DNA from: a virus
IMG/VR virus record: IMGVR_UViG_3300045934_000106
Coordinates: 3,919-67,918 of that record
Strand: one strand, 5' to 3'
DNA length: 64,000 bases
In this document: piece after piece, positions 3,762-63,208 of the stretch
Position numbering within the stretch: the stretch's first letter is position 1
Layout of the letters: the number at the start of each line of letters is the position of its first letter
The notes under the pieces: model-generated
The model's database searches: none
Told to the model about the DNA's origin: nothing
The model's input: the letters and a program-made list of their open reading frames with translations, nothing else
Made by a program: the position numbers and the translations under genes

Positions 3762-4022
3762 CTACTCCCAGCCGCGCAAGAAGCCGGCGATGTCGGGGCC
3801 CCAGACGTACCGCTGCGTGACGGTGCGACGGCGCGTGGTGAGTCCGACCTTGGCGCGTTCGAGCGGCGCTGACTCACGCACGAGCATGAGATTGACGAGC
3901 ACCGGGGGGATGCCCTCGGCGATGAGCGCGTCCGGCGTATACGCCTCGCGGTGACGCGCGATGAAGGCCAGCACGTTCCGCACGGCCGGCGTCAAGAGCG
4001 GTTGCACTTCTGAGTGTCTCAT
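3762..4022 (-). CDS. hypothetical protein, probably leaderless, first gene of the dcm operon
   Basis: ATG lies 7 nt downstream of a predicted extended -10 box. Confidence 0.65.
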   Translation of the reverse strand: MRHSEVQPLLTPAVRNVLAFIARHREAYTPDALIAEGIPPVLVNLMLVRESAPLERAKVGLTTRRRTVTQRYVWGPDIAGFLRGWE

Positions 4023-25400: not shown

Positions 25401-28400
25401 ACCTCGCCGGCCGTATAGGACGGGCGGGACGTGGGCACACCCAGCGCATGCAGTTCCGCTTTCCACCGTTTGTCGTTGCGCTTAATGCCGAGGATGGAGA
25501 TGTCGAGCCCGTGGCCAGCCTCGTGGAAGATGGTCATCAGGTCGTTGGCGACCTTCACGCGGATCGACTCGACGTCGTCTTTGTAGATGCCGCGCGCGCG
25601 CTGGCGGAAGTGCTTTTCGCGCACCGGCACACCGCCCAACGCCTGGCGGATCTGGTTCACGATCGCGCTCGGGCGGAGGTTGGCCGAGACGGGGAGCCCG
25701 GAGCCCTTCGGCGGCGGCATTGGTATTGGGCGCGGCGGCACACTGACCGGCAGGGACGAGACGGATCCGGACGGCGTGTCGTCGTCGCTGTCCTCGTCGG
25801 TGTCCGCGGCCGCCGGCGCCGGCTCGGGTGCGGGCTGCAGCGCCGTCATCCGCTCGCGCACGCGCGATTCGAGGTCCCGCTTTTTCACCGCCTCCCAGAG
25901 GTCGTCTTGTCCCGTGCCAAGATCGGCCGCGCTCAGTAGGCGCCGGGCGTAAATCTCGACGGCCTTGTCATCGCTGGCGGACTCGGCGCGCTCCATGCCG
26001 AGCTCGGCGCGCAGTTGGAACAGTTCCGCTTCCTTCGCTTCGAGTTCGGCCAGCTGCTTAAATGGCGCGTCCAGTAACTTGCGATTGGTCTCGACCTCCT
26101 GCTGGTAGCGCTCGGTCCACTTCTCGCTGTCGGCGATCTCGCTGGCCAGTCGCTGCACCCCGAAGTACGCGTCGAGACTGCGCGTGTAGCTCGGGATCGT
26201 GCCCTGCAGCTTGGAGTGCGGCGAATAGCCGGGCGACGTGCCAACGGGGTCCTTCTCCAGGCGCACGGAGATTGCGGGCGTGTAGAACTGGACCCCCTCA
26301 TCGTTGTGCGCCTGCGTCCCGCGCGTGTACTCCAGCGTGAACGGCCCGGCGGTCCCCATCGCCATCTCGTCGGCGCCGACATATGCGGCGTCGAGCTTCA
26401 TCACGGCCTCGACGTCGGCCTGGAATTGCTTGCGCGCCTCCGGATCTTTCCAGTCGTAGGTGCGCGGCTCGGAGCGCTGGATGGAGTCCATCCCCCACTG
26501 CTTGCCGGCCTTCACTGTCAGCGTGACGGTGGGCTTCTCGTGCCACGCCTTCAGTTCTTCGAGCTTCGCCTTCAGCTTCTCAATGCGCGGATGCGCGCGA
26601 CCGAGGAACTCGACGGTCCGATCGATCTCGCCCTGCGCCGCCTGGCGCTTGCGCGACCAGTTCGTATACCGCGCCCGAAGCCCCTTCAGGTCGCGCTCGA
26701 TATTGAGCATCTTGAGCGTGCGCGGATCGCCGCTGGCGAGCGCGGCGGCCACCTCCATGTCGAGCTGCGACGGGTCGACGTCGTCCATCTTGTTCACTTC
26801 GCCACGGAGCATCTTGTAGATGAATCCCTGCTTGATGGCGAGCAGCGACCAGCGGTATTCGTCGAACGAGCCTTCGGTGACGTAGCGCAGGACCTCGATT
26901 TCCTCGTTCGTGTTGCCCTGGCGACGGATGCGTCCCTCGCGTTGCTCCATGTCGGCCGGGCGCCACGGCACGTCGAGATGGTGGAGTGCCACGAGCCGCT
27001 TCTGCACGTTCATGCCGACGCCACCCTTGGCGGTGGAGGCGATCATGATGCGTACGCGCCCGTCGTTCATCGCAGCAAAGAGGCGGCCCTGTTCTCCTGG
27101 CGTCTGCGCCTGCTGAATGAACGCGATCTCGTCGGCCGGGATCTTGTGCTCTCTCACGAGGACGCGCTTCAGCTCCTCATAGAGGTTGCGCATGTGGCCA
27201 GCGGCGGCGATGTCCCGCATCGCTTCGTCGAACTCGGCCTCTTCGTCAACGATGTCGTCTTTGGCCTCGTCGTCCGTTTCGTCGTCAGCGGCCGCCTCCT
27301 CCTGGACCGGCGCCGCGGCGGCCTGCCCGCCCACGACTGACGGCGGGAGCGGGGGCATTTCCTTGGCCGGCGGCACGCCCACGTCGAGGAACACGAGCTG
27401 TGTGCCCTTGGTGGCGGCGTGCTCGGTGTAGCGCTTCGCCAGTTCGCGGGCGGCGGTGCGAATACGCCCGTTCGGATCGTCTTCGGCCTCTGGCTTCACG
27501 AGCCGCATATCGATCGCGGCGAGGCCCGCCTGCGTCGTGATCAGGAGGTGGTTGTCGTCCTTCGGATCGACGCGGCCCGTTTTCAGCGCCTCAATGCGGT
27601 CGTCGAGTTCGTGCATGAACTTGGGCATCAGCGGGTGCGGCTTGAGTGCGACAACTGTTGGGCGCCCGCCTTTGAGCTTCGGCAGCTTCAGCACGCCGCT
27701 CTGCTCGAGGTCATCGGTCGTCAGCACGTCGGTGAAGCGGCGGAACAGTTTCGACAGTTCGCGCAAGTTGCTCCACTCGCGCAGCCGGATCCGTTCCTTG
27801 TAGCCGGTGCCCGCGGCCTTCTCCATGGCCGGCGACGCCTCGGCGTAGCCACTCATCCACGAGTCGAAGCCAGCCATGCCGAACCGGTCTAGCGTGTGCT
27901 GCGCCAGATACCGGAACATCGTGTAGAGCTCGGAAATAGCGTTACTGACTGGCGTGCCGGTCGCGAACATCAGGTTGCGGTAGTTGCTGGCCTGATTGAT
28001 CAGCCGCGCCTTCAGGAACATATCCATCGCGCGGTCGGAGTCTGATCCGCGCAGCCCGACGATCTTGTTGTGGCGGCTGGAGAAATAGAGATTCTTGAAC
28101 AGGTGCGCTTCGTCGATCAGGAGCGCATCGACGCCGAGCTTCTCGAACTCGACCGGCGCGTCTTTCGCTTGCTGGTCGAGCCGCTTCTGCATGCGCGTGC
28201 GCAGGCGAATGAGCGCCCGGACAATATCCTTCGTGCTCTCCTCGACGCCGCGGCCCATCACGCGCTGCTTCGCTCGCTTGTCTCCGTCGGCGGCCTCGGT
28301 GACGGCTTGGTCGAACTCCTCGACCGTCATATCGAGGCTGTCGGCACCCTCAGCCAGAAGCTGCGCCTCCTGCTCCTCGACGAACGCCCTAAGCGTGTCG

Positions 28401-31400
28401 AGCGTGACGCCGACGCGCACGTACTGCGACATCGGGAGGATCACGGCGTCCCAATCGTTGTTCGCAATGCGCGCGATGAGTCGCTGACGGTTCTTCTTCT
28501 CGAAGTCGGCTTTCGCCGGCACGATCACGCGGGCGCCGGGATAGAACAGCAGATAATCGCGCCGCCACTGTTCGATCAGGTGGTTCGGCACCACGATCAT
28601 GGGCTTGCGCGCCAGGCCGAGACGCTTCATCTCGCCGGACGTCGCGATCATCGCGAACGTCTTGCCGGCGCCGACGGCGTGCGCCAGGAGCGTATTGCCA
28701 GCTTGCAGGGCCCGCCACACGGCATTCTTCTGCCAGGGCCGCAGCTGGATCTCAGGGTTGCTGTTCGGGATGATCAGCTTCGACCCGTCGAATTGCCGTG
28801 GCGCCTCGCGGTTAAACTGCGCGTTATAGAGCTTGGTGAGCTGGTCCGCGACCTGCGCATCCGCGCGCCACCACGTGCTCCACTCTTCGCGCAGCTGCTT
28901 CAGCGACTGCCGGTACTGCTCGGTGGCCTGCGTGTCGACGTAGGTCGACCCGTCCGGGTTCTCACGCTTCACCGTCGGCAGTTTGCCGTTGAGAGCCTCC
29001 GCCAACCACTCGGAGTACACGAGGTTGGGCGGCATGAGGTCGTCGCGGCCCCACCCTGTGACGTAGTACTGCACCCGGTGCGCGTTGTTCACGAGCTTGA
29101 TGTCGAGGTCGCTGTTGGCGCCGCGCGACTTGAAGAACTTATCGAATGCCGTGATCGGCACCCACGTTGCGCCGAACGGTGCGTCGAAGTCTTCGGGCGT
29201 GAGCGGCGCCGGCTGCACCTTGTTCAGCGCTTCGACGTTCCGCCGGTAGGTGTGATCCTGCAGCGCGGCGGCTTCCGCCGCGGCGAGCTTCGTGACGACG
29301 TCACCGGACAGATACTCCTCGGTCGTCACCCATCCCTTCGTCGCCGGATCGCGGTAGACCTCGGCGCCGAGTTCCTCGGTCAGCTGCTCAGCGGTCTTGC
29401 CCGTGAGCTGCGTCATGTAGGGCAGGTCGACCTGCCCCTTCCATGCGAGGCTCTGCACGAGCGCGTCCTGCGCGCTGGCGGCGGTCGTCGGCTCTTCGAC
29501 CGGCTGAATCGTGCGCTTGGTGAAGAACGGCGCCAACCCCTTGAACTGCAGGACGGCGGGCTTGCCCTTCGTCTCCTTGATAAACTCGACATCTTCGAGC
29601 GCCAGGATGCGCGCCCCGTTGGGATCGAGGTTGATGACGCGCGCGTTCTCGCGCGTGTTGACGTGGCCGAGCGCCGACACGAAGCGGTCGTAGTGCTTCC
29701 GTAGATCCGCCTGGGCGGCGGCGAGGGCCTCATCCGAGGCGCGCGATACCATCGCGTCGAGCACCTGCTGATAGGCGTCGCGGAGTGGGACGAAATACTT
29801 GGCGCGGTCGAGCGCCTTGCCCTTCAGCTCGAGCGGCTTCATCGTGCCCTTGTCAAACACGTAGGCTTTGCCCTTGTCGATCAGGAGGGTGCCTTGTTTG
29901 GCATCGGCCGGCGCGTCCTTCGCCACCTTGCGCGGCGGCGTCTTCGACGGCTTATAGGCGCCGGTCTCGAACTGCGCGACCGCGGACGCAAGGCGCTCCG
30001 GCGTCAGGTCCCCGACGACGTTGTATTGCGCGTCGCGCGTGCGTTGCATCTTGCCGGATCCGTCCGCCGTGCCCAGCACCATCTCGGGATGCTTCGCGAA
30101 ATACTGATTGACCGGGAACTTCACCTTGTCCTTCGCCCAGAACTCCCCCTTGGTGGCTTTCTTGGCATCCCGCACGACCTGAATGGTCTCGGTGTAGAGC
30201 CACTGTTGTGCGGCAACGCCCTTGACGTTCGGATCTTTGCGTCGCAACACGATCACGTCCGTTACCACTTCGGTGCCGGCGGTGGACTGGAAGGATGTGT
30301 CCGGCAGGCGGAACGCGCCGAGGAAGTCCGCGCGTGCGTCGAGATACTTGCGCACCACGTCACTCTGGCTGTCCATGGTGTAGCGCGACGTGACGAACAC
30401 GACGAGCCCGCCCGGACGAACCAGATCGAGCGCCTTGCCAAAGAAGTAGTTATGCAGCGACCGCGACATCACCTGCTTCTCGGAACCGCTGAACGCCGGG
30501 TCAAAGACCGGGAGCCTCCCGAACGGCACATTCGAGATGACGAGGTCGAAATAGTGCTCCGGCAATCGCGCTTCCTGCAGGGGCGACGTCTGGATATGGG
30601 CGCCTTGATAGAGCTGACGCGCAATGGCCGAGGCAATCGGCTCCATGTCGACGCCGTAGAGCGTCGTGCGCGTGTTGGTGCGGATGCTGGCCGGCATCGT
30701 GCCGAAGAAGTGGCCCGTGCCGATGGCCGGCTCGAGGATCGATCCGCCCTTGAACCCCAGACGCTCGACCAGATTCCACATCGCGCGCGGCAGCTCGTTG
30801 AAGGAATAGTGCGCGTTGACGGTGGAGTCTCCCATCGCGCTCAGTTCCGCCTTCGTGAGGAGGCGATCCAGCTCCTGGCGCGCGAGCTTGTGCCGAGGAT
30901 CTGTGACGTGGTCGACGCCACGCGGGTCAACGACGGGCGCCAGGTTGGTGTGCCCCCAGCCGATATAGCGCGCGAGCACGGCCTGCTCCGCATCGGTGGC
31001 CATGCGGTTGTTCTCGGCCCGCAGCGCTTTCAGCAGGCGCAACGCCGCCATGTTGTCGTCGAGTTTCTTCGTCCATCCGCCTTCGGTGAGGACCTCGGCG
31101 TTGTCGATGACGAAGTGTCGCGGGGCTTGCCCGCGCGCGTGACCGGCCGCTACTTCGGGGTCTGTGGCACTGTCGGCGGTGTCCACATGAGCGGGGCTGC
31201 TTGCTCCCGCGCTTCGTGGAGCGGGAGCCCCTGAGCCCTCAACAGCAGCTCGTGCTCGTGTGCCGCGTTGACCGCGTTTCTGACCGCCTGTTCGACGTCC
31301 CTCGGGTTGGCTCGGTGTGCTCGTCTGGTCGGCGGGCTGTGCTCCAGCCACACCCGCAGCACCTCCGTCTCGATCCCCTCCAGCGGCGTCTTCGTCACGG

Positions 31401-34400
31401 GCTCCGACGGCGTCCCCACGACGTGTATCGTCTTGTCCATCGGCCGTCTCCTGAGTGGTATTCTGCGCCTCTTCCGGCAGGTCTGCAACTCGGCGGTCTT
31501 CGTTCCGCAACCGGCGCCAGGCAATCTCAAAATGCCGCTGGAGCAGGGCCGCCAGCGGTGGGTAGTCCTCCTTGAACGTCAGCCACGCCAACTTGAATTC
31601 GACGACGCCATCATCAATGTAGGTGCGGACGATCCCCACCATATCGACGACATCCTGCGGATCGATGCCGGCGGTGAGCGTGGTGCCGTGGCGGGCGGCG
31701 AGTTTCTTCGCCAGCTCGTCGCGCTTCGCCTTGTTGGCCGCCTTGCGCGCGTCGAGCTCGGCGCGTTGCGTGTCGACGACGGGCGCCGATGGCTTCGCGT
31801 GCGGCGCCGTGACGAACGACGGCAGCACGTACTTCCATTCGGGCTCGACCTGCGGTGTCTTCGGCTTCACCGGCACGCCCGGCAACTCCACCGGAGGCGC
31901 CGGTTTCTCTGCCTTCGGTCCGATCTTCCGCTTCAGGACGATCTTCTCTGCGTCGGCGATGGCCTGATTCTTCTGAGGGTGTAGTGACTCCAGACGCGCC
32001 GCCGTGGGTACCGGCGACAAGACCTGAACTCTGACGGCCCACCGTTTACCGATGCCCGTATCTTCGAGGTCGACGGTGACCCTCACCTCTTCCCCGTTGG
32101 GGGTCCAGCCCTTGAAGCCTCCGACCGTATCAAGGTCGCGCTCGAATTGCGTAGTGTGCTCGCCGCCCGCGGTGAGTGGTGCCAGTCGCACGCGATCAAC
32201 CGGGATCCACTTCGACAGCTCGCCGTTCGGTTCGAGTGCGATCTTGACGTTGCGTGTCGCGCCGTCGAACGCATGCACGGTGCCCATGCCTTCGTCGGCG
32301 ATGACGCGTTCACCCACTTTGATGCCATTGGCGCTCGTCGACATCGCCTCGCCACGGCCCATCGGCTCTGAGCTGTCGGCCTTCGGCGTGACGGGCAGAT
32401 CCGGCGGCTTCGCCTGTTGAGCACCGAAGTCCAGTGACGGCAGCGTCATGCCGGCCTTGGTGCCGTGCCGCGTCATGAACGCCTTGATGGGCGCCATCGT
32501 CGCTTGCACCTGTTCGACGGTGGCCGTGGGCAACTGCGGATACGCACCCATCCCCGCGCGCAGGTGTCCGTGGATGAGGCCCTGGAGCTTGCCGGCCGCC
32601 TGCCCTGGCGCCTTCCAATACGGCCATCCGTCGCTATGGCTGTCGACTTCCTGCTGGAACGCTTGCAGGAAGCGCGACGCCGGACCGAGGACGGAATGCC
32701 GATCGAAGCGCGAGACCGCCTCCTCAATCTCGCTTCGGTTCATCCACACGGACGGCGCATCGGCCGGCTTGTCAGCCGCCGCGGGTGTCGCTTTCTGCTC
32801 CGCCTTTGCCGGGCCCAGCCCAGGATTGATGGTGCGCGCGTCGACAAACGTGACGGTCTCGTCGCCTTCCCACTGCACGCGGAGGTAATCACCCTTCGGC
32901 CCGGGCTCCTGTGCCGGCGACGCGACGTGGCCGATCTTCCACTCCATCGGATCGACGCTACGTTGGTCTGTGACCTGCTGGCCGGCGGTGTAACGCGCAG
33001 CCGCTGCGCCCATGCTTTCGATCACCTCGACCTTTGGCCCGGCGGCCGGTGTCGGCTTCTTCTCCTGCACTGGCGGTGCGGTTTTCTTCGAGGCGGCTGC
33101 CTTCGGCGCAGGCGCCGCGGCCTCTGGTGCGTGGGCGACGACGTCCATGCCCTTGAGCATGAGACTGTCGTTGGGGACCGTCCCTTCGCTGGTGGCGGTC
33201 TTGCCTTTGCCCTTGTTCGCGATCTTGAGTAGGCTCCACTTGTTGGCGCCGATCTTCGTGGCGGCCCAGGCGCCGGATTGGCGGCGCGTGCCGATGGGAT
33301 CGTCTTGTGGAAGTGATTTTTGACTTCCACGTTTCACTTCCACCGCCGGAGGTTGACTTCCAGCCGCCGCCTGCTCCGCTTCGTATTCCTTGAGGATCTC
33401 TGCGGCCAGTTCCTCGTCGGACATCTCCGCGGCGGCCTTCGGTGTCGCGGCGACAGGCGGTGGCGCCTTCTCCTCCGCCTTCGGCGTGACCGGTGCCGAT
33501 CGCTTCGGCACGCGGAACTTCATCTCACTGGCGGTCGTCGTGCGTTTCTTCGGGTTGCGCACGTGCATCGTGACTTCGTAGTCGATGGTGACGACGTCGC
33601 CGTCGCGCGTGACGCGAGTCACCTTAAACGTCGAGTCTTTCTCCTGCGGACTGTCTTGGATCCCAAGGATGTTCTTCGCGGCGGTGCGGCGCCGCGCGTC
33701 GTTCATCGACTCCCATTCGCCGCGGCCCATCGACGCCTTGATGTGCACCTCCGTCGCGTCCATGACCGCGTCGTAGGCTTTGCGCGTGATCGGGTCGGCT
33801 TTCTCGGCGATGTTCTCGGCGAAGCGGGGTGCGGCTGGCGTGTCCGCGAGCGCCGCGTCCGCTGCCGCGAGCACGGATTCAGGTGTCGGCGCGGTACCGC
33901 CCAACGGGATCTCAACCTGCTCGCCGTTGCGGTCGGAGAACACGAGCCGATCGAGCGTGACGGACTGTCCAGCGATCGACGTGTCGCCGTCGTACTTCTT
34001 GCCCAAGCCAGGCTTGACGTACGCCACGGTCGCATGCGGCTTGTAGTCGGGATGCGTGTCGGTGTGCGGCAGCGCATCGGCGATCTTCTTGTTCAGTCGA
34101 TGCAGGTCGTCGGAGTCGATGTCGACCTTGACGGCGTCGGCGGTGCCGTCCTCTACGTCCGGGAAGTGCGACGTCTTGCCGAACGTGACGCGGATCGGTG
34201 GCTCATCCGCCAGCAACGCGCGCACTTCATCGACGTAGTCGCCGTGCAGACCATACTTGACCGTGATATGCGGCTGCTCTTCGCGGCCGTGCTCAGGCGC
34301 CAGGTCCTCGTCGGGGATCTTCGCGGAGAGCGTACTGATCTGTTTCGCCGCATCCGGCGGCAGGTTCGCCTGCGTCGACGCGAACTTGTATTTGGTCTCG

Positions 34401-36526
34401 CGCTCCGGCTCTTCCTCGACGTCCTCCTCGACGTCGGCCATCGGATCGGGGAACGTCTCGCCGCGCTCTTTGGCGGCCGTCTCGCGGGACGTCTCGAGCT
34501 GAGACTGCTGCTCGCCCATCGCCCGCAGTTCCTTCGATCCGAGTTCTTCGCCGCGCGCGAGCTTCTCGCGGATGCGGGTATACGCCGCGTCCTGTTCCGG
34601 CGTGCTGATGCGATCCGCGCCTCGACGCTCTGGGCCGGTGTACAGGGTCCGGACGGGCGCCCGGTCCCGGCCCCCTGTACGGGCTGGGGGCGTCTCCGCC
34701 AGCGCGGCATCGACCGCCGCCAGCATCTCCTCCGGCGTTCGTTCGAGCGTCACGCCGCGCGCGTCAAGGATCGACTGCCAGTGTCGGACGTTCGCCTCGG
34801 CCTGCTGTAGCACCTCCGGCGAGGCACGCATGCCGCCCTTCTTCTTCGTGAGCTGGTCGAGCGTGCCCTGTGCGTGCAGCAGCTCCATCCGGATCTGATC
34901 GTCCGGCCACGCGGCGACATCGGCCGGCAGCTCGTCGCCCGGCTGCATGTCCTCCGGCGTCGGCACCGACAGCGTCGCGTCAATCTGCGCGAGCAGGTCT
35001 TCGGCCGCCGGGGCCTCAAGCGGGAGGTCCTGTCCGGTCTGTCCGGTCTGTCCGATCGCGGTCTGTCCGGCCGGATCGACGCGGGCGGCGGCCTGTGCGG
35101 GCGTCATGCCCGCCATCTCCGCCTCGGAGAGGCCGAGCGCTTCGAGCGGCCCGCGCATCTGTTGCGCGAGCTGGGACGGCGTCACCGTCTCCGGCGGTGG
35201 CGGCGGGACCGGCGGACGACCGAGCTGTGACACCGCGCCCGCGCCCCCGCCCATCACGGCGCCCGCGAACGCGCCCAGCACCGCGGCATCGTCGACGTTC
35301 TCGTGAAGCGGCCGGCCCGTGGCGAGGTTCTGCGCCACCTGCTCTTGTACGGACTGCGGCAGTTCTTCGAGGACCCCTTCGTTGAACGCCGCGAAGCCGA
35401 CCTCAAGGACAGCCCGCGTGAAGCCTTTACGGGCGTTCGGGTTGAGCGCGGCGGCGGCCAGCAACGTATCGACGTCGGCGACCCCCAGCGTCTCGGCGAC
35501 CTTGCCGCCGACGAACCCCAGCATCCCCGTCAACGCGCCGGACGAGATGGCGATCCCCGCTTGGCCAGGGCCGAGCACGCCGCCGGAGTCGTGCCGGATC
35601 TGTTCGGCGGTCTGCCCGCCCGCCACGGCACCCTCGCCGATGGCACCCGCGGTGACCGGCGACAGTGCTGGCGCCGCTTTGAGCAGCGGACGCGCCACGC
35701 CGAGCCCGCCCATCATCGACGGGGCGGATTCGAGCGCGGTATGGCCGATCACCGATGGATTCGACAGCGCCGCCATCGCCTTGTCGAGGAACCCGGAGGC
35801 GTCCTGCACGGTGGCGAACGCCTGTTTCTGCGGGTCCGAGTAGTAGCGCGACAGGATCTCCTTGGCGAGCGCCGGCTGATACCCCGCGGCTTCGGCCGCG
35901 CGCATGAACGCGCCGCCTTCGTAGCCGAGATCGCCCGGTCCGGCAGCATCCACCGCGCCGAGATACGCGGCCACGACGGCATCGGCCAGCCCAATCCCGG
36001 CTTCCGGCAGACCCACGACCCCCTTCGCGAGCGAGATGGCGGGGTCCTGTGCGTAGCGTTCAAACGGCGTGGCCGGTGAGAACGGCGCCGGCGGTGCCGG
36101 TGGCGGCGGCGACGGGAGCGCCTGCCCACTCAGGTTGACGACAGGACGGCCGATCCCCGCGCGCTGCTCGCCCGCGGACGGCGAGATCGGCACATGACTG
36201 CGCGCCATCGTCGCCCCGGTCGCTTGACGCTTCGCGGCCTGGACTTGCGCCACGGATGGCCCTGGCTGCATCGAAGCGGCCCCTGGCTGCATCAAACCTG
36301 GCCCCGGCTGCATACGTGCCCGGCTCGACATCGGTGCCAAGGGCGCCATCGTGGTTGACAGGGCGGGCACCGTAGGCGGCGTCGAGTCATCCGCCAGCGT
36401 AGAGTCGATGTCGGCGAGCAACGACGACAGGTCCGGCGTCTTCGTCCGGATGGTCTGGGACTCTTGCAGCGTCGCGTCGATGTCGGCCAGCAGCGACTGG
36501 AGGGAAGAACCGGGCTGCTGTGCCAC
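22430..36526 (-). CDS. giant polyvalent DarB-like protein: 2H phosphoesterase, N6-adenine methyltransferase, SNF2 helicase, zincin and LPD38 domains
   Basis: HITV/HATV 2H motifs; LEPAIGTG and NVPFG; HAVGAGKT, DEAH, ATGTP, QREGRIRRQGN; FHEAGH; YQELPAWEK...RIPKPFEWG. Confidence 0.9.
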   Translation of the reverse strand: MAQQPGSSLQSLLADIDATLQESQTIRTKTPDLSSLLADIDSTLADDSTPPTVPALSTTMAPLAPMSSRARMQPGPGLMQPGAASMQPGPSVAQVQAAKRQATGATMARSHVPISPSAGEQRAGIGRPVVNLSGQALPSPPPPAPPAPFSPATPFERYAQDPAISLAKGVVGLPEAGIGLADAVVAAYLGAVDAAGPGDLGYEGGAFMRAAEAAGYQPALAKEILSRYYSDPQKQAFATVQDASGFLDKAMAALSNPSVIGHTALESAPSMMGGLGVARPLLKAAPALSPVTAGAIGEGAVAGGQTAEQIRHDSGGVLGPGQAGIAISSGALTGMLGFVGGKVAETLGVADVDTLLAAAALNPNARKGFTRAVLEVGFAAFNEGVLEELPQSVQEQVAQNLATGRPLHENVDDAAVLGAFAGAVMGGGAGAVSQLGRPPVPPPPPETVTPSQLAQQMRGPLEALGLSEAEMAGMTPAQAAARVDPAGQTAIGQTGQTGQDLPLEAPAAEDLLAQIDATLSVPTPEDMQPGDELPADVAAWPDDQIRMELLHAQGTLDQLTKKKGGMRASPEVLQQAEANVRHWQSILDARGVTLERTPEEMLAAVDAALAETPPARTGGRDRAPVRTLYTGPERRGADRISTPEQDAAYTRIREKLARGEELGSKELRAMGEQQSQLETSRETAAKERGETFPDPMADVEEDVEEEPERETKYKFASTQANLPPDAAKQISTLSAKIPDEDLAPEHGREEQPHITVKYGLHGDYVDEVRALLADEPPIRVTFGKTSHFPDVEDGTADAVKVDIDSDDLHRLNKKIADALPHTDTHPDYKPHATVAYVKPGLGKKYDGDTSIAGQSVTLDRLVFSDRNGEQVEIPLGGTAPTPESVLAAADAALADTPAAPRFAENIAEKADPITRKAYDAVMDATEVHIKASMGRGEWESMNDARRRTAAKNILGIQDSPQEKDSTFKVTRVTRDGDVVTIDYEVTMHVRNPKKRTTTASEMKFRVPKRSAPVTPKAEEKAPPPVAATPKAAAEMSDEELAAEILKEYEAEQAAAGSQPPAVEVKRGSQKSLPQDDPIGTRRQSGAWAATKIGANKWSLLKIANKGKGKTATSEGTVPNDSLMLKGMDVVAHAPEAAAPAPKAAASKKTAPPVQEKKPTPAAGPKVEVIESMGAAAARYTAGQQVTDQRSVDPMEWKIGHVASPAQEPGPKGDYLRVQWEGDETVTFVDARTINPGLGPAKAEQKATPAAADKPADAPSVWMNRSEIEEAVSRFDRHSVLGPASRFLQAFQQEVDSHSDGWPYWKAPGQAAGKLQGLIHGHLRAGMGAYPQLPTATVEQVQATMAPIKAFMTRHGTKAGMTLPSLDFGAQQAKPPDLPVTPKADSSEPMGRGEAMSTSANGIKVGERVIADEGMGTVHAFDGATRNVKIALEPNGELSKWIPVDRVRLAPLTAGGEHTTQFERDLDTVGGFKGWTPNGEEVRVTVDLEDTGIGKRWAVRVQVLSPVPTAARLESLHPQKNQAIADAEKIVLKRKIGPKAEKPAPPVELPGVPVKPKTPQVEPEWKYVLPSFVTAPHAKPSAPVVDTQRAELDARKAANKAKRDELAKKLAARHGTTLTAGIDPQDVVDMVGIVRTYIDDGVVEFKLAWLTFKEDYPPLAALLQRHFEIAWRRLRNEDRRVADLPEEAQNTTQETADGQDDTRRGDAVGARDEDAAGGDRDGGAAGVAGAQPADQTSTPSQPEGRRTGGQKRGQRGTRARAAVEGSGAPAPRSAGASSPAHVDTADSATDPEVAAGHARGQAPRHFVIDNAEVLTEGGWTKKLDDNMAALRLLKALRAENNRMATDAEQAVLARYIGWGHTNLAPVVDPRGVDHVTDPRHKLARQELDRLLTKAELSAMGDSTVNAHYSFNELPRAMWNLVERLGFKGGSILEPAIGTGHFFGTMPASIRTNTRTTLYGVDMEPIASAIARQLYQGAHIQTSPLQEARLPEHYFDLVISNVPFGRLPVFDPAFSGSEKQVMSRSLHNYFFGKALDLVRPGGLVVFVTSRYTMDSQSDVVRKYLDARADFLGAFRLPDTSFQSTAGTEVVTDVIVLRRKDPNVKGVAAQQWLYTETIQVVRDAKKATKGEFWAKDKVKFPVNQYFAKHPEMVLGTADGSGKMQRTRDAQYNVVGDLTPERLASAVAQFETGAYKPSKTPPRKVAKDAPADAKQGTLLIDKGKAYVFDKGTMKPLELKGKALDRAKYFVPLRDAYQQVLDAMVSRASDEALAAAQADLRKHYDRFVSALGHVNTRENARVINLDPNGARILALEDVEFIKETKGKPAVLQFKGLAPFFTKRTIQPVEEPTTAASAQDALVQSLAWKGQVDLPYMTQLTGKTAEQLTEELGAEVYRDPATKGWVTTEEYLSGDVVTKLAAAEAAALQDHTYRRNVEALNKVQPAPLTPEDFDAPFGATWVPITAFDKFFKSRGANSDLDIKLVNNAHRVQYYVTGWGRDDLMPPNLVYSEWLAEALNGKLPTVKRENPDGSTYVDTQATEQYRQSLKQLREEWSTWWRADAQVADQLTKLYNAQFNREAPRQFDGSKLIIPNSNPEIQLRPWQKNAVWRALQAGNTLLAHAVGAGKTFAMIATSGEMKRLGLARKPMIVVPNHLIEQWRRDYLLFYPGARVIVPAKADFEKKNRQRLIARIANNDWDAVILPMSQYVRVGVTLDTLRAFVEEQEAQLLAEGADSLDMTVEEFDQAVTEAADGDKRAKQRVMGRGVEESTKDIVRALIRLRTRMQKRLDQQAKDAPVEFEKLGVDALLIDEAHLFKNLYFSSRHNKIVGLRGSDSDRAMDMFLKARLINQASNYRNLMFATGTPVSNAISELYTMFRYLAQHTLDRFGMAGFDSWMSGYAEASPAMEKAAGTGYKERIRLREWSNLRELSKLFRRFTDVLTTDDLEQSGVLKLPKLKGGRPTVVALKPHPLMPKFMHELDDRIEALKTGRVDPKDDNHLLITTQAGLAAIDMRLVKPEAEDDPNGRIRTAARELAKRYTEHAATKGTQLVFLDVGVPPAKEMPPLPPSVVGGQAAAAPVQEEAAADDETDDEAKDDIVDEEAEFDEAMRDIAAAGHMRNLYEELKRVLVREHKIPADEIAFIQQAQTPGEQGRLFAAMNDGRVRIMIASTAKGGVGMNVQKRLVALHHLDVPWRPADMEQREGRIRRQGNTNEEIEVLRYVTEGSFDEYRWSLLAIKQGFIYKMLRGEVNKMDDVDPSQLDMEVAAALASGDPRTLKMLNIERDLKGLRARYTNWSRKRQAAQGEIDRTVEFLGRAHPRIEKLKAKLEELKAWHEKPTVTLTVKAGKQWGMDSIQRSEPRTYDWKDPEARKQFQADVEAVMKLDAAYVGADEMAMGTAGPFTLEYTRGTQAHNDEGVQFYTPAISVRLEKDPVGTSPGYSPHSKLQGTIPSYTRSLDAYFGVQRLASEIADSEKWTERYQQEVETNRKLLDAPFKQLAELEAKEAELFQLRAELGMERAESASDDKAVEIYARRLLSAADLGTGQDDLWEAVKKRDLESRVRERMTALQPAPEPAPAAADTDEDSDDDTPSGSVSSLPVSVPPRPIPMPPPKGSGLPVSANLRPSAIVNQIRQALGGVPVREKHFRQRARGIYKDDVESIRVKVANDLMTIFHEAGHGLDISILGIKRNDKRWKAELHALGVPTSRPSYTAGEVRREGAANFFREWLLDPSAVQAAAPNYFAEFTKQLATKPDLEQALHEARTNVQGYLGMSYPERLEARIDYTGKGPATGLRLAATDPKAALRHAATNLVDDLQPIKRAVDAMRDGAAVAFRQNAYVLARLARGAAGKAQAFLEWGVRARNGKFISGSLADALKPVSKNDETLKKFGNYLVALRVVELKDTKKRTLPVETGISLTEAIETIKVTKQRADFTAFEQARDAVYAYQDALLEYARQYGAMSDEQIAKIKKLNEFYIPFKRVMEEVEARMSGAMRIGNRTVPVKRIKGSGLDIVNPFESIIVNTHAIVDMVEKNRAMMALANQADRSKASSRLGGLEKIPAPQIPDTVNVMAILEAFAGQDPAIADFIQATGLTDRDLVTLFTPATFVTPGQTLVTVIRDGRREFYDVHNPELYEAITRIGANLKSSVLATFVEPFTRVLRAGATLTPHFIARNPARDALVAFLQSRYGFIPGYDTARGLIELVRGTEVAKQFFASGIDQTAMVGQDRQRIRETLGRLNRQDAKALLRYWPMHPLQFMQMVSSQLEMATRMGEFKLALEAGGVEQGVLKRLFGAKQFTINEETLTRAALAARDVTTDFSRGGRWTRELNRYSAFFNARVQGYVRIGETVARDPVGTLEKVAAMMLFSAILAWWNHDDDEYQELPAWEKRTYWHLRFHGADYFIRIPKPFEWGYAADLAEAAAHEVMGNAEHWKRLRPSDSDMGQTVVSVMPTVVLPILEVMANYSTFRDRNIVSPFDLDLPEEDQHNDFTSETAKALGRLMKWSPAKIEHLFYGYTAGMGRIAVIYIADPVLGKLGLLPAVKERAPRDRHDVPFVVKPLADVFHRDAAFSSQSVSIEAFYDAYTEMTGAEQAMRRAARVNDATRGRELAAEHQDLGRWGERADTRQRGVAGFTGDRANRLRAGKRRIDEIRDGIDEIYAASPEAMTPEQKRAALDRALEELVHTARLATGKAGLQGMPRHRLPVGR
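31150..31440 (-). CDS. 96-aa protein overprinted in the +1 frame of the giant gene
   Basis: AGGAG RBS 7 nt before the ATG; helical, protein-like sequence while the host frame is a G/R/A/D-rich linker. Confidence 0.6.
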   Translation of the reverse strand: MDKTIHVVGTPSEPVTKTPLEGIETEVLRVWLEHSPPTRRAHRANPRDVEQAVRNAVNAAHEHELLLRAQGLPLHEAREQAAPLMWTPPTVPQTPK

Positions 36527-60030: not shown

Positions 60031-60480
60031 TTACTTCGGCCATCCGAACAGGGCCCACCGCAGGCGGCGGACGAACGACATCCCGCGAAAGTCGATGAGC
60101 GCGGCGACCGCCAGGTGATGCGCGCCGAGCGTGGGCACGTCGTCCCGCATCTTGTGATACGCGGCCGCCGCCGACTCGTTGAACGCCACGACCTGGTTCT
60201 CGGCCCGCGTCACGCTCTCGCTGATCACGTGCTGACGCTGCTCGAGGGCCATCACCATCTTGCCTTGCGCGTCGAGGCGGCGCGTCAGCTCCGCTCGCGT
60301 CGCTTCCAGCGTGCGCTCGAACTCCTGCACCTGCTTGGCGACGCGTTGGGACACGTCCGTCGCGTGATTGGCGCTGGTAATGCACTCGTTCGTGCGGAGG
60401 ACGGCTTCGTCGTGGATACGGGCGGCCTCTTCGACCACGTCAGCGACGGTCGCGAAGTTCCGCTTTTGTTCTCGGCCCAT
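60031..60480 (-). CDS. coiled-coil hypothetical protein
   Basis: Heptad-rich; ends FVRRLRWALFG. Confidence 0.65.
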   Translation of the reverse strand: MGREQKRNFATVADVVEEAARIHDEAVLRTNECITSANHATDVSQRVAKQVQEFERTLEATRAELTRRLDAQGKMVMALEQRQHVISESVTRAENQVVAFNESAAAAYHKMRDDVPTLGAHHLAVAALIDFRGMSFVRRLRWALFGWPK

Positions 60481-60643
60481 AGAGTGGTCCCGGCGTCACG
60501 GGGATCGAGCGCTCTACCGGCTCCCCGGATCGTGGGTGCCGGGCTTCCACCTTCACCCACAATCCGGCTCCCGGGGATGCAGTCGCTGCTAGAGGCTCAT
60601 AACGAGCACCAGCCTGACAAAAGGCTGCGGTGGAGCGCAAGAG

Positions 60644-63208
60644 CTAGCGGCGGACCAGACTCCCCATCACGCCGCCCGGGCGTTTCTTGTGGCGCTTGTC
60701 GAGCGTTTCGTAGTGCTGCCGCTCGAGCGCCGGCAGGTGCGCGTAGGGGTCGACGATGAGCGTGCGGTCTTGGAACGGACGCGCCTCGAAGAACCGGCCG
60801 ATGTCCTCGTAGCAGTTATGAACCAGGAGGCCGTTGGCGAAGAACTCGTGCGCGTCTTCGACGGTTAGGTCATACACCGCGGCGCGCCCGCTTGGCCGCA
60901 CGGTAGTAACACTTCGGGTCACCGCAGAAGCGCTTGTTCGGTCGCTTCGTGGCGAATCGAGCGCCGCACCCATCGCACCGGACAAAGCGCGTCGGCTTCG
61001 ACTCTCGCTGTCGTTCCTCGAACGAACGATTGATGCACTTGGCGGAACAATAATTGACGTCGCGCAGCTGGTCACCGGCGATGTCAGCGGGTCCCCCACA
61101 CATCGCGCAGGTCGTGAGGACACGAGGGATTGCCAGCCGCGCTTCAGAAGCGTATCCAGCGTTCTCGCGACGCGCAGCGCGCTGGCGAGGAGTCGGATTC
61201 CTACTATGGAGCGAGAGATGCTGCTTTCGAGGCAAGAGTTCGAGATTGTCGGGATGGTTGTTTGCACGGTTCCCATCCTTGTGGTGCACATGACAGCCAA
61301 ACGGCAGACGCCCGTGCGTGTCTCGCCACACGCGGCGGTGAAGGCGACCGTAGCCACGGCGCGCAAAGTAGCGACCGCATTTGTAATAGACCACGTCCCG
61401 CCACACCTGCGCTGTCTCTGACAGCACGATTGGAGCTTCGACCACAAGGAAACCTCTGTCGCGTAATACGGTATGAAGTCGTTGGATATTTCGTCGACAC
61501 GGATGAATCCACGCGTTTTGTCAAAGATTCCATGGTTCCCAGTGGCGCGCACGGCGCCGCCAGGTGTCACGACCTCGAACACCTCGGCATCTGGCGATGT
61601 CTGCCAGGCACGCAACACCCGCCGATAGCCTCGGCGCGTCAGGAGCCTGTCACCGGCCAGAATCCGCTCGATCGGCGTCAGTCCTTCGTCGGTGTGCACC
61701 AGCGTGCCCTCGGCGATGCAGTGGTTCTCGGAGTCTTCGTCCTCCACGTCGGGATCTTCCTCGTCCCATGGGATGTCCGGGACCGTGCGGATCGCCTCCG
61801 GGCACGCAGTCGTGATCGTCCAGTTCGGCAACCCGTCGACGTTGGTCTGCAGGGCATCGAGCCAGCGCTGCGGCCGCGACTCCCGGGCCGGCCGGCCCGC
61901 GGCACCGAGCCGCACGTTGCAGAGGTGCAGCAGCTCGTCGCAGTAGACCTCGTAGATCGATTTCGCGCGGCCGAGTTCCTCCCGTGACGCCTTCATCGAG
62001 GGGTCGATCACGATCCACTCGGGCTTGTAGTTCCGGTGTTCGAGCAGCTGGCGAATCATCTGCGCCTGTTCCACGTCGCGCTTGCGGGGCATGTAGAACT
62101 CGAAGAAGGTCCGCACGTGGCCACCGGGCAGGCCGGCATGCAGGTGAAACGACCACGGCACGCCATAGCCGTAGTCGACCGAGCCCCAGATCGGGGCGCC
62201 TGCCGGCGGCTTCCAATGCGCGTTGGGGATCACGTGCCAGGGGATCACCTGACCGACCGACAGCGCCGCCGAGAGCGCCAGCAGATCCTCGTCGGTCTCG
62301 TGGATCATCTTCTTCTCGCGCCAGAACGGGCCGACGATCATCTGATCGTAGGCGTCCCAATCGCCCTCCGCCAGTTGCTTCGCCTTGTCGCCCCCCAGCG
62401 CGTAGACCTTGGCCAGGTAGTGCGGATCGGCGTTGGCCAGCGCCATGTTGTCGTGGAACCACGCCGGGATGAACTGCCGCGTGGGCACGAACTCTGGTTT
62501 GCTCGGATCGCCGGGGAGCGGCAACGGGCGCCACACCTCGAAGGGCTGCGGCGGCAGGCGCCCCGGGCCAAGCTCCTCGGGCCGAGGCCGCAAGAACCAG
62601 CGTTTGAGCCATCCATGGCCGACACCGCCCGGGTTCGACATCAGGCGGATGCGCTTGCGCATGCCGAGACGCGCCGAGCGCACGCGCGTCATCAGGTATT
62701 TCACCTGGAACTCGGTGAAGTGGGACGCCTCGTCGATGAACAGCGCCACCCACTGCGCCGACTGGTAGCTGTAGACATCTTTCTCGTGCTGTGCGTGGCA
62801 GAACCAGAGCTGTGAGCCGTTCCAGAACGTCGCCACCAAATCCGAGGCATTGAACTTGGCGATGTAATCCGGCACGAGCAGCAGGAAGCGGCTGATGATC
62901 TCCTGCTTCAGTTCCTTCAACTTGCGGCGGAAGAACGCGACTTTGACGTTCGGGTTCTCGATGCAGATCGTGATCGCCTCGACCAGGCCGAACTCGGACT
63001 TGCCGCCACCGACGGCGCCGCCGTAGAACAGGACCTCGGCGACGGAGGCGTGCGCGAACGCCTGTTTCGGCTGCGGAACGCAGCGATCACGGCGGGGATG
63101 GCAGGGGGGATCGTGCACGCACTCGCCGGACGGATCGGTGTAGCCCCAATTCCAGCCGGCGCGCAGGGACGCGAGGCGGCGCGCTTCCTTCGAGCGCTTA
63201 CCGCTCAT
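60644..63208 (-). CDS. terL: terminase large subunit with intein
   Basis: YGGAVGGGKS Walker A, FIDEASHF Walker B, SNPGGVGHGWLKRWF, nuclease VDYG...IDPS, and ENH|CYED split by the intein. Confidence 0.95.
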   Translation of the reverse strand: MSGKRSKEARRLASLRAGWNWGYTDPSGECVHDPPCHPRRDRCVPQPKQAFAHASVAEVLFYGGAVGGGKSEFGLVEAITICIENPNVKVAFFRRKLKELKQEIISRFLLLVPDYIAKFNASDLVATFWNGSQLWFCHAQHEKDVYSYQSAQWVALFIDEASHFTEFQVKYLMTRVRSARLGMRKRIRLMSNPGGVGHGWLKRWFLRPRPEELGPGRLPPQPFEVWRPLPLPGDPSKPEFVPTRQFIPAWFHDNMALANADPHYLAKVYALGGDKAKQLAEGDWDAYDQMIVGPFWREKKMIHETDEDLLALSAALSVGQVIPWHVIPNAHWKPPAGAPIWGSVDYGYGVPWSFHLHAGLPGGHVRTFFEFYMPRKRDVEQAQMIRQLLEHRNYKPEWIVIDPSMKASREELGRAKSIYEVYCDELLHLCNVRLGAAGRPARESRPQRWLDALQTNVDGLPNWTITTACPEAIRTVPDIPWDEEDPDVEDEDSENHCIAEGTLVHTDEGLTPIERILAGDRLLTRRGYRRVLRAWQTSPDAEVFEVVTPGGAVRATGNHGIFDKTRGFIRVDEISNDFIPYYATEVSLWSKLQSCCQRQRRCGGTWSITNAVATLRAVATVAFTAACGETRTGVCRLAVMCTTRMGTVQTTIPTISNSCLESSISRSIVGIRLLASALRVARTLDTLLKRGWQSLVSSRPARCVGDPLTSPVTSCATSIIVPPSASIVRSRNDSESRSRRALSGAMGAALDSPRSDRTSASAVTRSVTTVRPSGRAAVYDLTVEDAHEFFANGLLVHNCYEDIGRFFEARPFQDRTLIVDPYAHLPALERQHYETLDKRHKKRPGGVMGSLVRR
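60815..61720 (-). mobile_element. intein in the terminase nuclease domain, with no in-frame endonuclease
   Basis: Starts CIAEGTLVHTDEG; block B RATGNHGIF; ends VYDLTVEDAHEFFANGLLVHN followed by C. Confidence 0.93.
60870..61445 (-). CDS. HNH endonuclease nested out of frame inside the terminase intein
   Basis: RLHRRVW...HVHHKDGNRANNHPDNLELL...H, then CAMC/YCSAKC and CDGC/FCGDPKC; GAGGT RBS before the GTG. Confidence 0.9.
   Translation of the reverse strand: MVEAPIVLSETAQVWRDVVYYKCGRYFARRGYGRLHRRVWRDTHGRLPFGCHVHHKDGNRANNHPDNLELLPRKQHLSLHSRNPTPRQRAARRENAGYASEARLAIPRVLTTCAMCGGPADIAGDQLRDVNYCSAKCINRSFEERQRESKPTRFVRCDGCGARFATKRPNKRFCGDPKCYYRAAKRARRGV

Follow-up and report, generated by a model that had tools for sequence, protein, structure and literature searches.

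A terL intein with an HNH endonuclease gene in a second reading frame, and the spread of this layout among phages

Background

Inteins whose homing endonuclease (HEN) lies outside the reading frame of the host gene have been described before. For actinophage inteins of this kind, Gosselin et al. 2025 proposed an origin from a free-standing homing endonuclease gene (HEG), reported signs of continued transfer and called the architecture rare. The present paper concerns the intein in the gene for the terminase large subunit (terL) of a virus in IMG/VR (record IMGVR_UViG_3300045934_000106, 67,918 bases, 66% GC), in which an HNH endonuclease gene lies between the splicing blocks in the +2 frame. 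Positions 3,919 to 67,918 of the record were analysed; this stretch of 64,000 bases is called the window, its coordinates are used throughout, and soil metagenome runs hold sequence near-identical to it.

Other published systems share parts of this layout. The passages at hand from Phillips et al. (bioRxiv 10.64898/2026.09.14.751524) describe a cyanobacterial dnaX intein with an out-of-frame LAGLIDADG homing endonuclease and cite Gorbalenya 1998 for the out-of-frame idea. For fractured genes, the sections consulted of Dassa et al. 2009 (PMC2677866) report GIY-YIG and Vsr-like nucleases, with HNH cases only predicted, and a terminase case that breaks at an unusual point. An out-of-frame layout is not mentioned in the searched passages of Kelley et al. 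2016, and literature searches, with preprint supplements outside their scope, returned no paper describing the HNH_3 family inside terL inteins. The out-of-frame HEN architecture is already published and is not new; the terL intein of the window is a new member.

Results and discussion

The terL intein and its nested HNH gene

The terL gene, its intein and the HNH gene comprise the following features.

60644..63208, minus strand: terL precursor gene, 854 codons plus stop in a single unbroken frame, with Pfam and PHROG matches
61721..63208, minus strand: N-extein, residues 1-496, ending ...DEDSENH; GC content at third codon positions (GC3) 0.885
60815..61720, minus strand: intein, residues 497-798 (302 residues), with the class-1 features Cys1, TxxH, terminal HN and +1 Cys
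61446..61720, minus strand: N-terminal splicing part with blocks A and B; predicted HINT strands, predicted local distance difference test score (pLDDT) 84-98
61452..61457, minus strand: Shine-Dalgarno-like (SD-like) AGAGGT, 6 bases before the GTG; duplex -6.5 kcal/mol
60870..61445, minus strand: HNH_3 homing-endonuclease-like gene, 191 codons plus TGA, +2 relative to terL
60893..61444, minus strand: terL-frame reading of the HNH gene, an S/T/A/R-rich linker (residues about 589-772) without a confident fold
60815..60892, minus strand: C-terminal splicing part with blocks F and G, VYDLTVEDAHEFFANGLLVHN; pLDDT 93-98
60644..60814, minus strand: C-extein, CYEDIGRFF... to the stop

The terL precursor matched Terminase_3, Terminase_6N and Intein_splicing in Pfam (the last with 37.4 bits, the cut-off being 35.8) and the terminase large subunit families PHROG 979 and PHROG 2. 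The intein begins with Cys1 (CIAEGT) and has TGNH as block B, VYDLTVEDAHEFFANG as block F and LLVHN as block G; its C-terminal end reads VYDLTVEDAHEFFANGLLVHN and is directly followed by the +1 Cys of the C-extein, as in class-1 inteins. Across 50 aligned inteins, H63 of block B was invariant and T60 nearly invariant. The insertion site is about 25-55 codons before the end of terL, in what we take to be the conserved nuclease motif of the protein (D-A-x-R-Y), part of which can be seen at the junctions. When the intein was read in the terL frame, the structure predicted with AlphaFold2 had pLDDT values of 84-98 over residues 1-90 and 93-98 over residues 271-302, while the stretch of about 180 residues between the HINT halves had low values (39-73) and no confident fold. 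The predicted ends matched the gp41-1, DnaB and RecA inteins (Foldseek, E down to 2.7e-6), with template modelling scores by target of 0.60-0.77 for the gp41-1 and DnaB mini-inteins, and in this model the two halves are predicted to form a HINT fold. The sum of S, T, A and R was 50.5% in the linker (residues 591-772) and 23.6% in the exteins. GC3 was 0.71 in the intein splicing part and 0.67 in the HNH gene, a drop from the extein value that looks as if the unit had arrived recently from a less GC-rich donor.

The HEN open reading frame (ORF) lies between blocks B and F at an offset of +2, with 0 stops in the terL frame, as in other non-canonical inteins. It starts with GTG at 61445 and ends in a TGA that overlaps the TAT-GAC of block F, where the V-Y-D codons lie. 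The translated ORF matched HNH_3 (PF13392, E 6.7e-15, 54.9 bits against a cut-off of 24.8) and, over nearly its full length, the free-standing 'HNH endonuclease' family PHROG 15471 (E 1.4e-24); the Endonuclease_7 / IPR004211 signature was absent from it in a Pfam scan at E up to 0.1. In an alignment of 53 sequences, residues H54, H55, D57, N62, N67 and H76 were invariant. A model predicted from this alignment had a mean pLDDT of 94.2, and among solved structures an exhaustive aligner matched it best to I-HmuI (1u3e; Z 8.4, rmsd 2.4, 74 residues, 22% identity) across model residues 1-82, the next match, I-PpoI, reaching only Z 4.2. The ORF is predicted to have the beta-beta-alpha-metal fold, and the C-terminal half of the protein consists of Cys-rich repeats (CxxC...CxxxC). 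GC content by codon position was 0.66/0.53/0.67 in the HNH frame, lowest at position 2 as in real genes, and 0.53/0.67/0.65 in the terL frame over the same bases, where the gene-like minimum at position 2 is absent. At the homologous HNH starts of 52 loci, the median SD duplex energy was -5.05 kcal/mol, compared with 0.0 kcal/mol in 1040 control windows (Mann-Whitney p 5e-11), and 35% of the starts reached -6 kcal/mol or lower, compared with 6% of the controls.

A first-pass annotation of the window, made from its sequence alone, had described intact blocks A, B, F and G at 60815..61720, an S/T/A/R-rich filler in the frame between them, and an HNH gene at +2 with a GTG at 61445, a ribosome binding site and a TGA over the VYD codons. 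The motifs, the Intein_splicing match and the exact boundaries bear out the first of these, the composition, low pLDDT and lack of constraint on the terL frame (below) the second, and the ORF coordinates and HNH_3 match the third.

Distribution of the layout among relatives

A search of IMG/VR with the HNH alignment found at least 360 relatives, of which the best 80 were classified with three hidden Markov models (HMMs) of our own, for the HNH and the N and C parts of the intein. The HNH was nested out of frame within a single unbroken frame carrying both splicing parts in 64 of these 80, lay between separate ORFs holding the two parts in five, and was free-standing without an intein in five. 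The other six matched the N part only; two of them are cut by the contig end, and three of the four with an open frame have a block-G-like HN[CS] by eye. An in-frame HNH was found in none of the 80, and in none of the 75 loci with both intein flanks. Together with the window, L005, L008, phiCDHM19 and TJE1, the contiguous set numbers 69 loci, 59 with the HNH at +2 and 10 at +1, and a Vibrio phage record (L002) brings the fractured set to six. Thirty further loci had no intein match: 29 were weak HNH relatives (HMM scores <60, from a narrower first scan) and were left uncounted, and the thirtieth is the free-standing L003. The composite of intein and HNH is old, common to at least 69 loci.

Pfam was run on 62 of 76 terL-frame ORFs, leaving out 14 near-duplicates. 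A terminase family was found in 47 of the 62 (Terminase_3/3C, 6N/6C, GpA_ATPase and T7 RNaseH-like); most of the ORFs had intein or Hint families, and none had an HNH family. Likewise, none of 100 terL intein proteins from a protein search carried an HNH Pfam entry, and several had LAGLIDADG entries. Among cultured phages, phiCDHM19, TJE1, Highwayman and LS06 have the nested layout, and tblastn of the HNH against cultured phages gave matches inside annotated terL genes. In Clostridium phage phiCDHM19 and Tetrasphaera phage TJE1, terL is open through the intein and a homologous HNH ORF lies at +2 in its middle. A blastn search of the terL region against cultured phages gave no match, and a word-index protein search with the HNH gave only three proteins. 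HNH identity within the lineage falls to about 26%, the hosts range from Clostridioides to Acinetobacter, and the terL genes are of several Pfam types. Four loci (L002, which is Vibrio phage 1.245.O, L054, L056 and L074) have two inteins per terL, an in-frame LAGLIDADG intein upstream and an HNH-associated one near the 3' end; the latter is fractured in L002 and L074.

Selection in the two frames

Fifteen locus pairs were aligned codon by codon; one of them, the window and L005 (a contig of another IMG/VR record that carries an identical intein), has no differences. In the overlap, 14 informative pairs gave a ratio of nonsynonymous to synonymous differences per site (pN/pS) of 0.09-0.51 for the HNH frame, and 13 pairs gave 0.84-2.37 for the terL frame. 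For the flanking extein and N-splicing part, pN/pS was 0.03-0.66 when read in the terL frame and at least 0.9 when read in shifted frames. Differences in the overlap concentrate at the third position of HNH codons, the second of terL codons, so the selected frame switches inside the intein. By these alignments, the HNH frame of the overlap is under purifying selection and the terL frame is not, and the terL-frame linker is under no sequence constraint apart from the absence of stops. The first-pass annotation had made its reading depend on a conserved HNH frame and had proposed a dN/dS comparison of both frames; the HNH is out of frame in 64 of the 80 best relatives and under purifying selection, and the comparison, made here as pN/pS, came out on the side of the HNH frame.

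A stop-free terL frame over the HNH gene can arise by chance in a GC-rich genome, and for the window it stayed open in 424 of 3000 synonymous shuffles of the HNH ORF and in 345 of 3000 trials with HNH codons sampled from extein usage. The open terL frame in the window alone is weak evidence, and the comparative data are decisive. In phiCDHM19 (30% GC), terL was kept open in 0 of 3000 shuffles, 5-10 stops were expected, and the third frame has 33 stops. Over 55 non-redundant contiguous loci, 178 terL-frame stops would be expected from the shuffles, and the actual third frame holds 755; no shuffle of 1000 left the terL frame open at 10 of the 55 loci, and at most 50 did so at 28. The per-locus chances sum to about 7.6, and since the label 'contiguous' presupposes zero stops, the fair comparison is 55 open loci against 6 fractured ones, where chance would leave about 8 open. 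The terL frame across the HNH gene is kept stop-free by selection.

Mobility of the intein and HNH unit

Between the window and L005 the intein has 0 differences in 906 bases, the N-extein 41 in 1221 and the C-extein 9 in 168, or 3.4-5.4% in the exteins; at the extein rate, the chance of zero differences in the 906 intein bases is 4e-15. The identity extends past both ends of the intein.

60771..61882, no strand: 1112-base tract identical to L005, made up of the intein with 162 bases of N-extein and 44 bases of C-extein

On the N-extein side the identical bases are 61721..61882 and the nearest difference is at 61883, 163 bases from the intein; on the C-extein side they are 60771..60814 and the nearest difference is at 60770, 45 bases away. 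A contig from the soil run X7 has the same tract limits, with none of its 28 substitutions within 60771..61882. The tract looks like a co-conversion tract by its sequence. Four other close pairs also have inteins that are less diverged (1.7-8.3%) than their exteins (8.1-18.6%): L080/L087 (intein 16/942, N-extein 13.9%, C-extein 8.1%), L080/L089 (78/942, 18.6%, 17.2%), L077/L078 (27/942, 11.2%, 11.1%) and L077/L098 (51/942, 13.2%, 11.1%). The near-identical L080 and L079, with 4 differences in 827 N-extein bases, tend if anything the other way, the intein being slightly further diverged than the exteins.

A search of cultured phages with the terL-portal region of Highwayman, an Acinetobacter phage that has the nested form, matched 101 records, and of these only Highwayman itself has the insert. 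In phage Acba_21, at 99.5% identity, exactly 981 bases are absent, and the empty site is ...HYIDA-LRYALEKV where Highwayman has ...HYIDA|C...N|CRYAIEKV. The two differ at 11 positions in 2.7 kb, none of them further from the site than 165 bases on the upstream side and 8 bases on the downstream side. Presence and absence together with clustered flanking differences form, as read from the two sequences, the pattern expected to be left by homing with co-conversion. Computation shows recent lateral movement of the whole intein and HNH unit, and the composite appears to have entered the window genome as a single unit.

Free-standing and fractured relatives

In L003, L096, L110, L091 and phages CL2, EauM-23 and PAE1, a free-standing HNH relative follows terL directly and precedes the portal gene. 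In L007 the gene is on the opposite strand, in L101 it precedes the portal gene, and in Acinetobacter phage BP10 (L118) it precedes terS. The position after terL is only 100-200 bases from the intein site. The free-standing HNH of PAE1 is present in 4 of 136 related records, relatives that are about 97% identical lacking some 607 bases, so the free-standing gene is dispensable, contrary to a packaging role.

In the six fractured loci the order is terL-N with the N intein half (IntN), HNH, then the C half (IntC) with terL-C, with overlaps; the old frame has 8-17 stops, and a start codon and SD motif for the C part are present in most. Three Vibrio phage isolates are among them. The window's terL has no stop after IntN, the feature that would mark it as a fractured gene with a split intein.

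The first-pass annotation had suggested that a free-standing HNH colonised a mini-intein by overprinting. Free-standing relatives directly after terL fit such an origin, but the colonisation did not take place in this phage. Of the term overprinting, the notion of a separate, selected HNH gene stands; otherwise the word is loose, in that the HNH existed beforehand and the terL-frame reading is a by-product.

Two further observations concern the phages with free-standing copies. BP10, whose terL of 470 codons has no intein, and Highwayman (L117), with its nested HNH, belong to one Acinetobacter phage group. In the PAE1-like Pseudomonas phages (about 97% identical) the terL-portal junction is empty (span 1694), holds the HNH (span 2301) or holds another insert of about 400 bases encoding a hypothetical protein (span 2093; PAC5, PSA39, NEU2024), and it seems to be an insertion hot spot.

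Interpretation and alternative explanations

We read the terL intein as a non-canonical, two-cistron intein whose mRNA is read in two frames, and put the probability of this reading at roughly 0.8. Frame 0 would give the TerL precursor, with a class-1 HINT domain broken by a structureless linker of about 180 residues. Protein splicing, which is expected because terL is essential and its frame is kept open under selection, would excise the 302-residue insert and join ...SENH to CYED... in the C-terminal nuclease region of TerL. The internal start (GTG 61445, behind AGAGGT) would yield a 191-residue HNH nuclease, presumably by independent translation. During co-infection this nuclease would nick or cut terL alleles that lack the intein, in or close to the insertion site, and repair from the intein-bearing copy would transfer the intein, the HNH gene and some flanking extein. 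That the empty terL site is the target, and that nicking or cleavage there is site-specific, is suggested by the co-conversion-like tracts. A separate HEG cistron may uncouple the dosage and timing of the nuclease from the abundant late protein TerL. The out-of-frame state is taken as stable because HNH identity falls so low, +2 and +1 forms both occur and no in-frame member was seen; that it is the selected state of this terL-intein lineage, and not a rare accident or a passing stage to an in-frame domain, is a tentative view to which we give slightly less than even odds.

If the HNH were instead reached by ribosomes that leave the terL frame at a programmed frameshift (-1 for the +2 layout), the product would be a fusion of N-extein, N-terminal intein part and HNH. 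This is unlikely. The HNH frame is indeed open upstream of the GTG, for 25 codons in the window and about 90 in TJE1, and an SD-like motif is missing at some loci; yet the +1 and +2 layouts would require opposite shifts, the HNH must start on its own in the six fractured loci and the free-standing relatives, its start codons are at a homologous position and SD-enriched, and inspection by eye, with no formal scan, found no canonical slippery heptamer in the 75 bases before the GTG. Slightly less likely again is that the HNH is a packaging cofactor, as in many cos phages, merely housed in terL and no homing nuclease. Relatives do adjoin terminase genes (after terL in CL2, EauM-23, PAE1 and L003, before terS in BP10), and zinc-ribbon HNH nucleases beside cos and terminase genes are described in the part consulted of PMC3592412. 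Against this, the HNH is dispensable (4/136 PAE1-related records; the Highwayman insert in 1/101), the unit carries signatures of lateral transfer, the Pfam family is HNH_3 and the predicted fold is closest to the homing nuclease I-HmuI.

The layout is not an assembly artefact. Contigs of four public runs aligned over 60300..62300 have no inserted or missing letters there; an independent soil contig from run X7 spans the region with 28 substitutions and 0 gaps; and the identical 854-residue TerL protein is recorded from 6 contigs. The same absence of indels, in an independent strain as well, disposes of the two compensating indels which the first-pass annotation had named as the finding that would overturn it, and makes either an artefact or a dead in-frame HNH intein shifted by such indels very improbable. 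Long alternative frames are common at 66% GC, and for the window alone chance accounts for 12-14% of cases, but the layout recurs in 69 loci, the HNH frame is under purifying selection with catalytic columns invariant in 53 sequences, and in-frame members number 0/75 loci, 0/62 ORFs (Pfam) and 0/100 terL intein proteins. Least probable of all is an RNA intron (group I or II) in the intein-coding region, removed before translation. HNH_3 nucleases such as I-HmuI are typically intron-encoded; an Rfam scan of 60500..62000 nonetheless returned no intron family (its sole match was sX15, E 0.38), selection maintains an open terL frame, which would be unnecessary in an intron, and no joint was seen in RNA-library contigs over the segment, which is weak evidence.

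Several observations weigh against a two-cistron intein with an independently translated nuclease, or soften its support. The pN/pS pairs share loci (L080 in four, L077 in three, the window in three) and are hence non-independent, and the contiguous-locus counts are conditioned on our own HMMs, built from six sequences. The open terL frame over the HNH is not significant in the window alone (12-14% of shuffles). Divergence of the intein is in no deficit in the more distant pair L080/L077 or in L042/L050. Foldseek found no match of the HNH model in the Protein Data Bank at E 0.001, I-HmuI coming second at E 0.084. Most +1 loci, TJE1 and L006 lack an SD-like motif at the HNH start, and in 3 of 55 loci the start codon was missing from the search window; given the motif's absence at several loci, internal initiation by SD pairing cannot be general, and it must also be possible by other means. 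Contigs from soil metatranscriptome libraries (runs X12 and X20) cover parts of the intein and HNH region in the window variant and an L005-like variant, and are no proof of transcription, since DNA carry-over is possible. The joint of an intein-less allele was not seen in the contigs of the four runs, from which rare variants are dropped.

Other genes of the window

The first-pass annotation had held that intein endonucleases are normally in-frame domains, as in a LAGLIDADG intein of the same phage. That intein (CFPAGTMVL...IIVHN|CTYHS) was found in the C-5 cytosine DNA methylase gene and is in frame, but as a rule the statement is limited by out-of-frame and other-strand inteins already in print.

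428..3304, minus strand: C-5 cytosine DNA methylase gene, 958 codons; Pfam DNA_methylase, E 2.5e-15
600..1187, minus strand: 195-codon ORF in the +2 frame of the methylase gene; Pfam HNH (PF01844), E 6.5e-9, with Cys-rich repeats
22433..36526, minus strand: frame open from stop to stop over 4698 codons, the longest of the window by a wide margin

The 195-codon ORF lies in a second insert of the methylase gene, about 210 unalignable residues between the RCQGFPSFK and MCGNSVPP motifs. Our own intein HMMs found no splicing blocks around it. It looks like the hidden HNH of the ShiLan type, at least as the passages at hand from PMC11855218 describe it. With it, this one phage has two out-of-frame HNH genes.

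Implications

The window case supports the view of splicing first and nuclease later, in contrast to the usual description of inteins as a single in-frame fusion. A homing nuclease gene can remain free-standing within an intein, never entering the intein's frame, and from then on the two are transferred together as a unit. Three states in one HNH family form a natural series for testing the Dassa model of nuclease gain and split-intein origin, and Highwayman and Acba_21 are a cultured pair that could be used for it. Gene callers suppress the nested ORF, with the effect that phage records either show terL alone and miss the HNH (phiCDHM19, TJE1, Highwayman) or have terL divided. An out-of-frame HNH probably lies in many of the terL inteins, some 300 residues long, that pass as 'endonuclease-less'. 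Of practical interest are the compact splicing domains of the family, in which a linker of about 180 residues is tolerated, its set of natural split versions, and its new putative nickases of the I-HmuI-like type, whose targets, in the conserved terL motif, can be read from empty alleles.

Comparison with known systems

The actinophage inteins of Gosselin et al. 2025 resemble the window in being contiguous, in having terL among their hosts, in the same-strand nuclease 'in reading frame 3' between the blocks, and in an in-frame stretch that is unstructured in predictions. Their nuclease belongs to IPR004211, with core residues 1-67 matching 1E7D at Z 6.5, whereas that of the window belongs to HNH_3, with an I-HmuI-like N-terminus at Z 8.4. 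The two families are set apart by the preprint's description of its actinophages (Angelicase, Affeca, Keitabear, Sedona) and by Pfam and tblastn here; TJE1 was the only PhagesDB-type actinophage among the 36 and 33 tblastn records of the HNH family. A remote His-Me finger kinship with the Endonuclease VII-like HEN is possible. The layout called rare there is the rule for the HNH family here, across several terL Pfam types and hosts.

As far as the passages at hand from Phillips et al. 2026 go, the dnaX intein is like the window in its overlapping frames, with low dN/dS in the endonuclease frame and raised dN/dS in the extein frame, and like the terL family in having no in-frame relatives and a proposed secondary invasion of a mini-intein. 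It differs in its LAGLIDADG nuclease, cellular host and dnaX gene, and those passages report no fractured or free-standing series such as the terL HNH family has. Six relatives in that family match the layout of the fractured genes in the sections consulted of Dassa et al. 2009; in the window, by contrast, the frame is unbroken and the intein is one contiguous unit. The hidden HNH genes of phage DNA methylases (ShiLan type; Arsenault et al. 2025, PMC11855218) share with the window, in the parts of that paper at hand, an out-of-frame HNH, a GTG start and an open host frame; there, however, a splicing domain is lacking and the insert stays in the host protein, whereas the window HNH is flanked by intact intein blocks. 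Finally, I-HmuI (1u3e), the nicking HNH of a Bacillus phage group I intron, superposes on the window HNH in its N-terminal DNA-binding sheet and HNH core, and differs in having helical C-terminal modules and an intron carrier where the window HNH has Cys-rich repeats and an intein carrier. The family described here is set apart by its I-HmuI-like HNH_3 nuclease, by the breadth of its spread and by having both +1 and +2 forms but no in-frame members, and it occurs in a series of three states.

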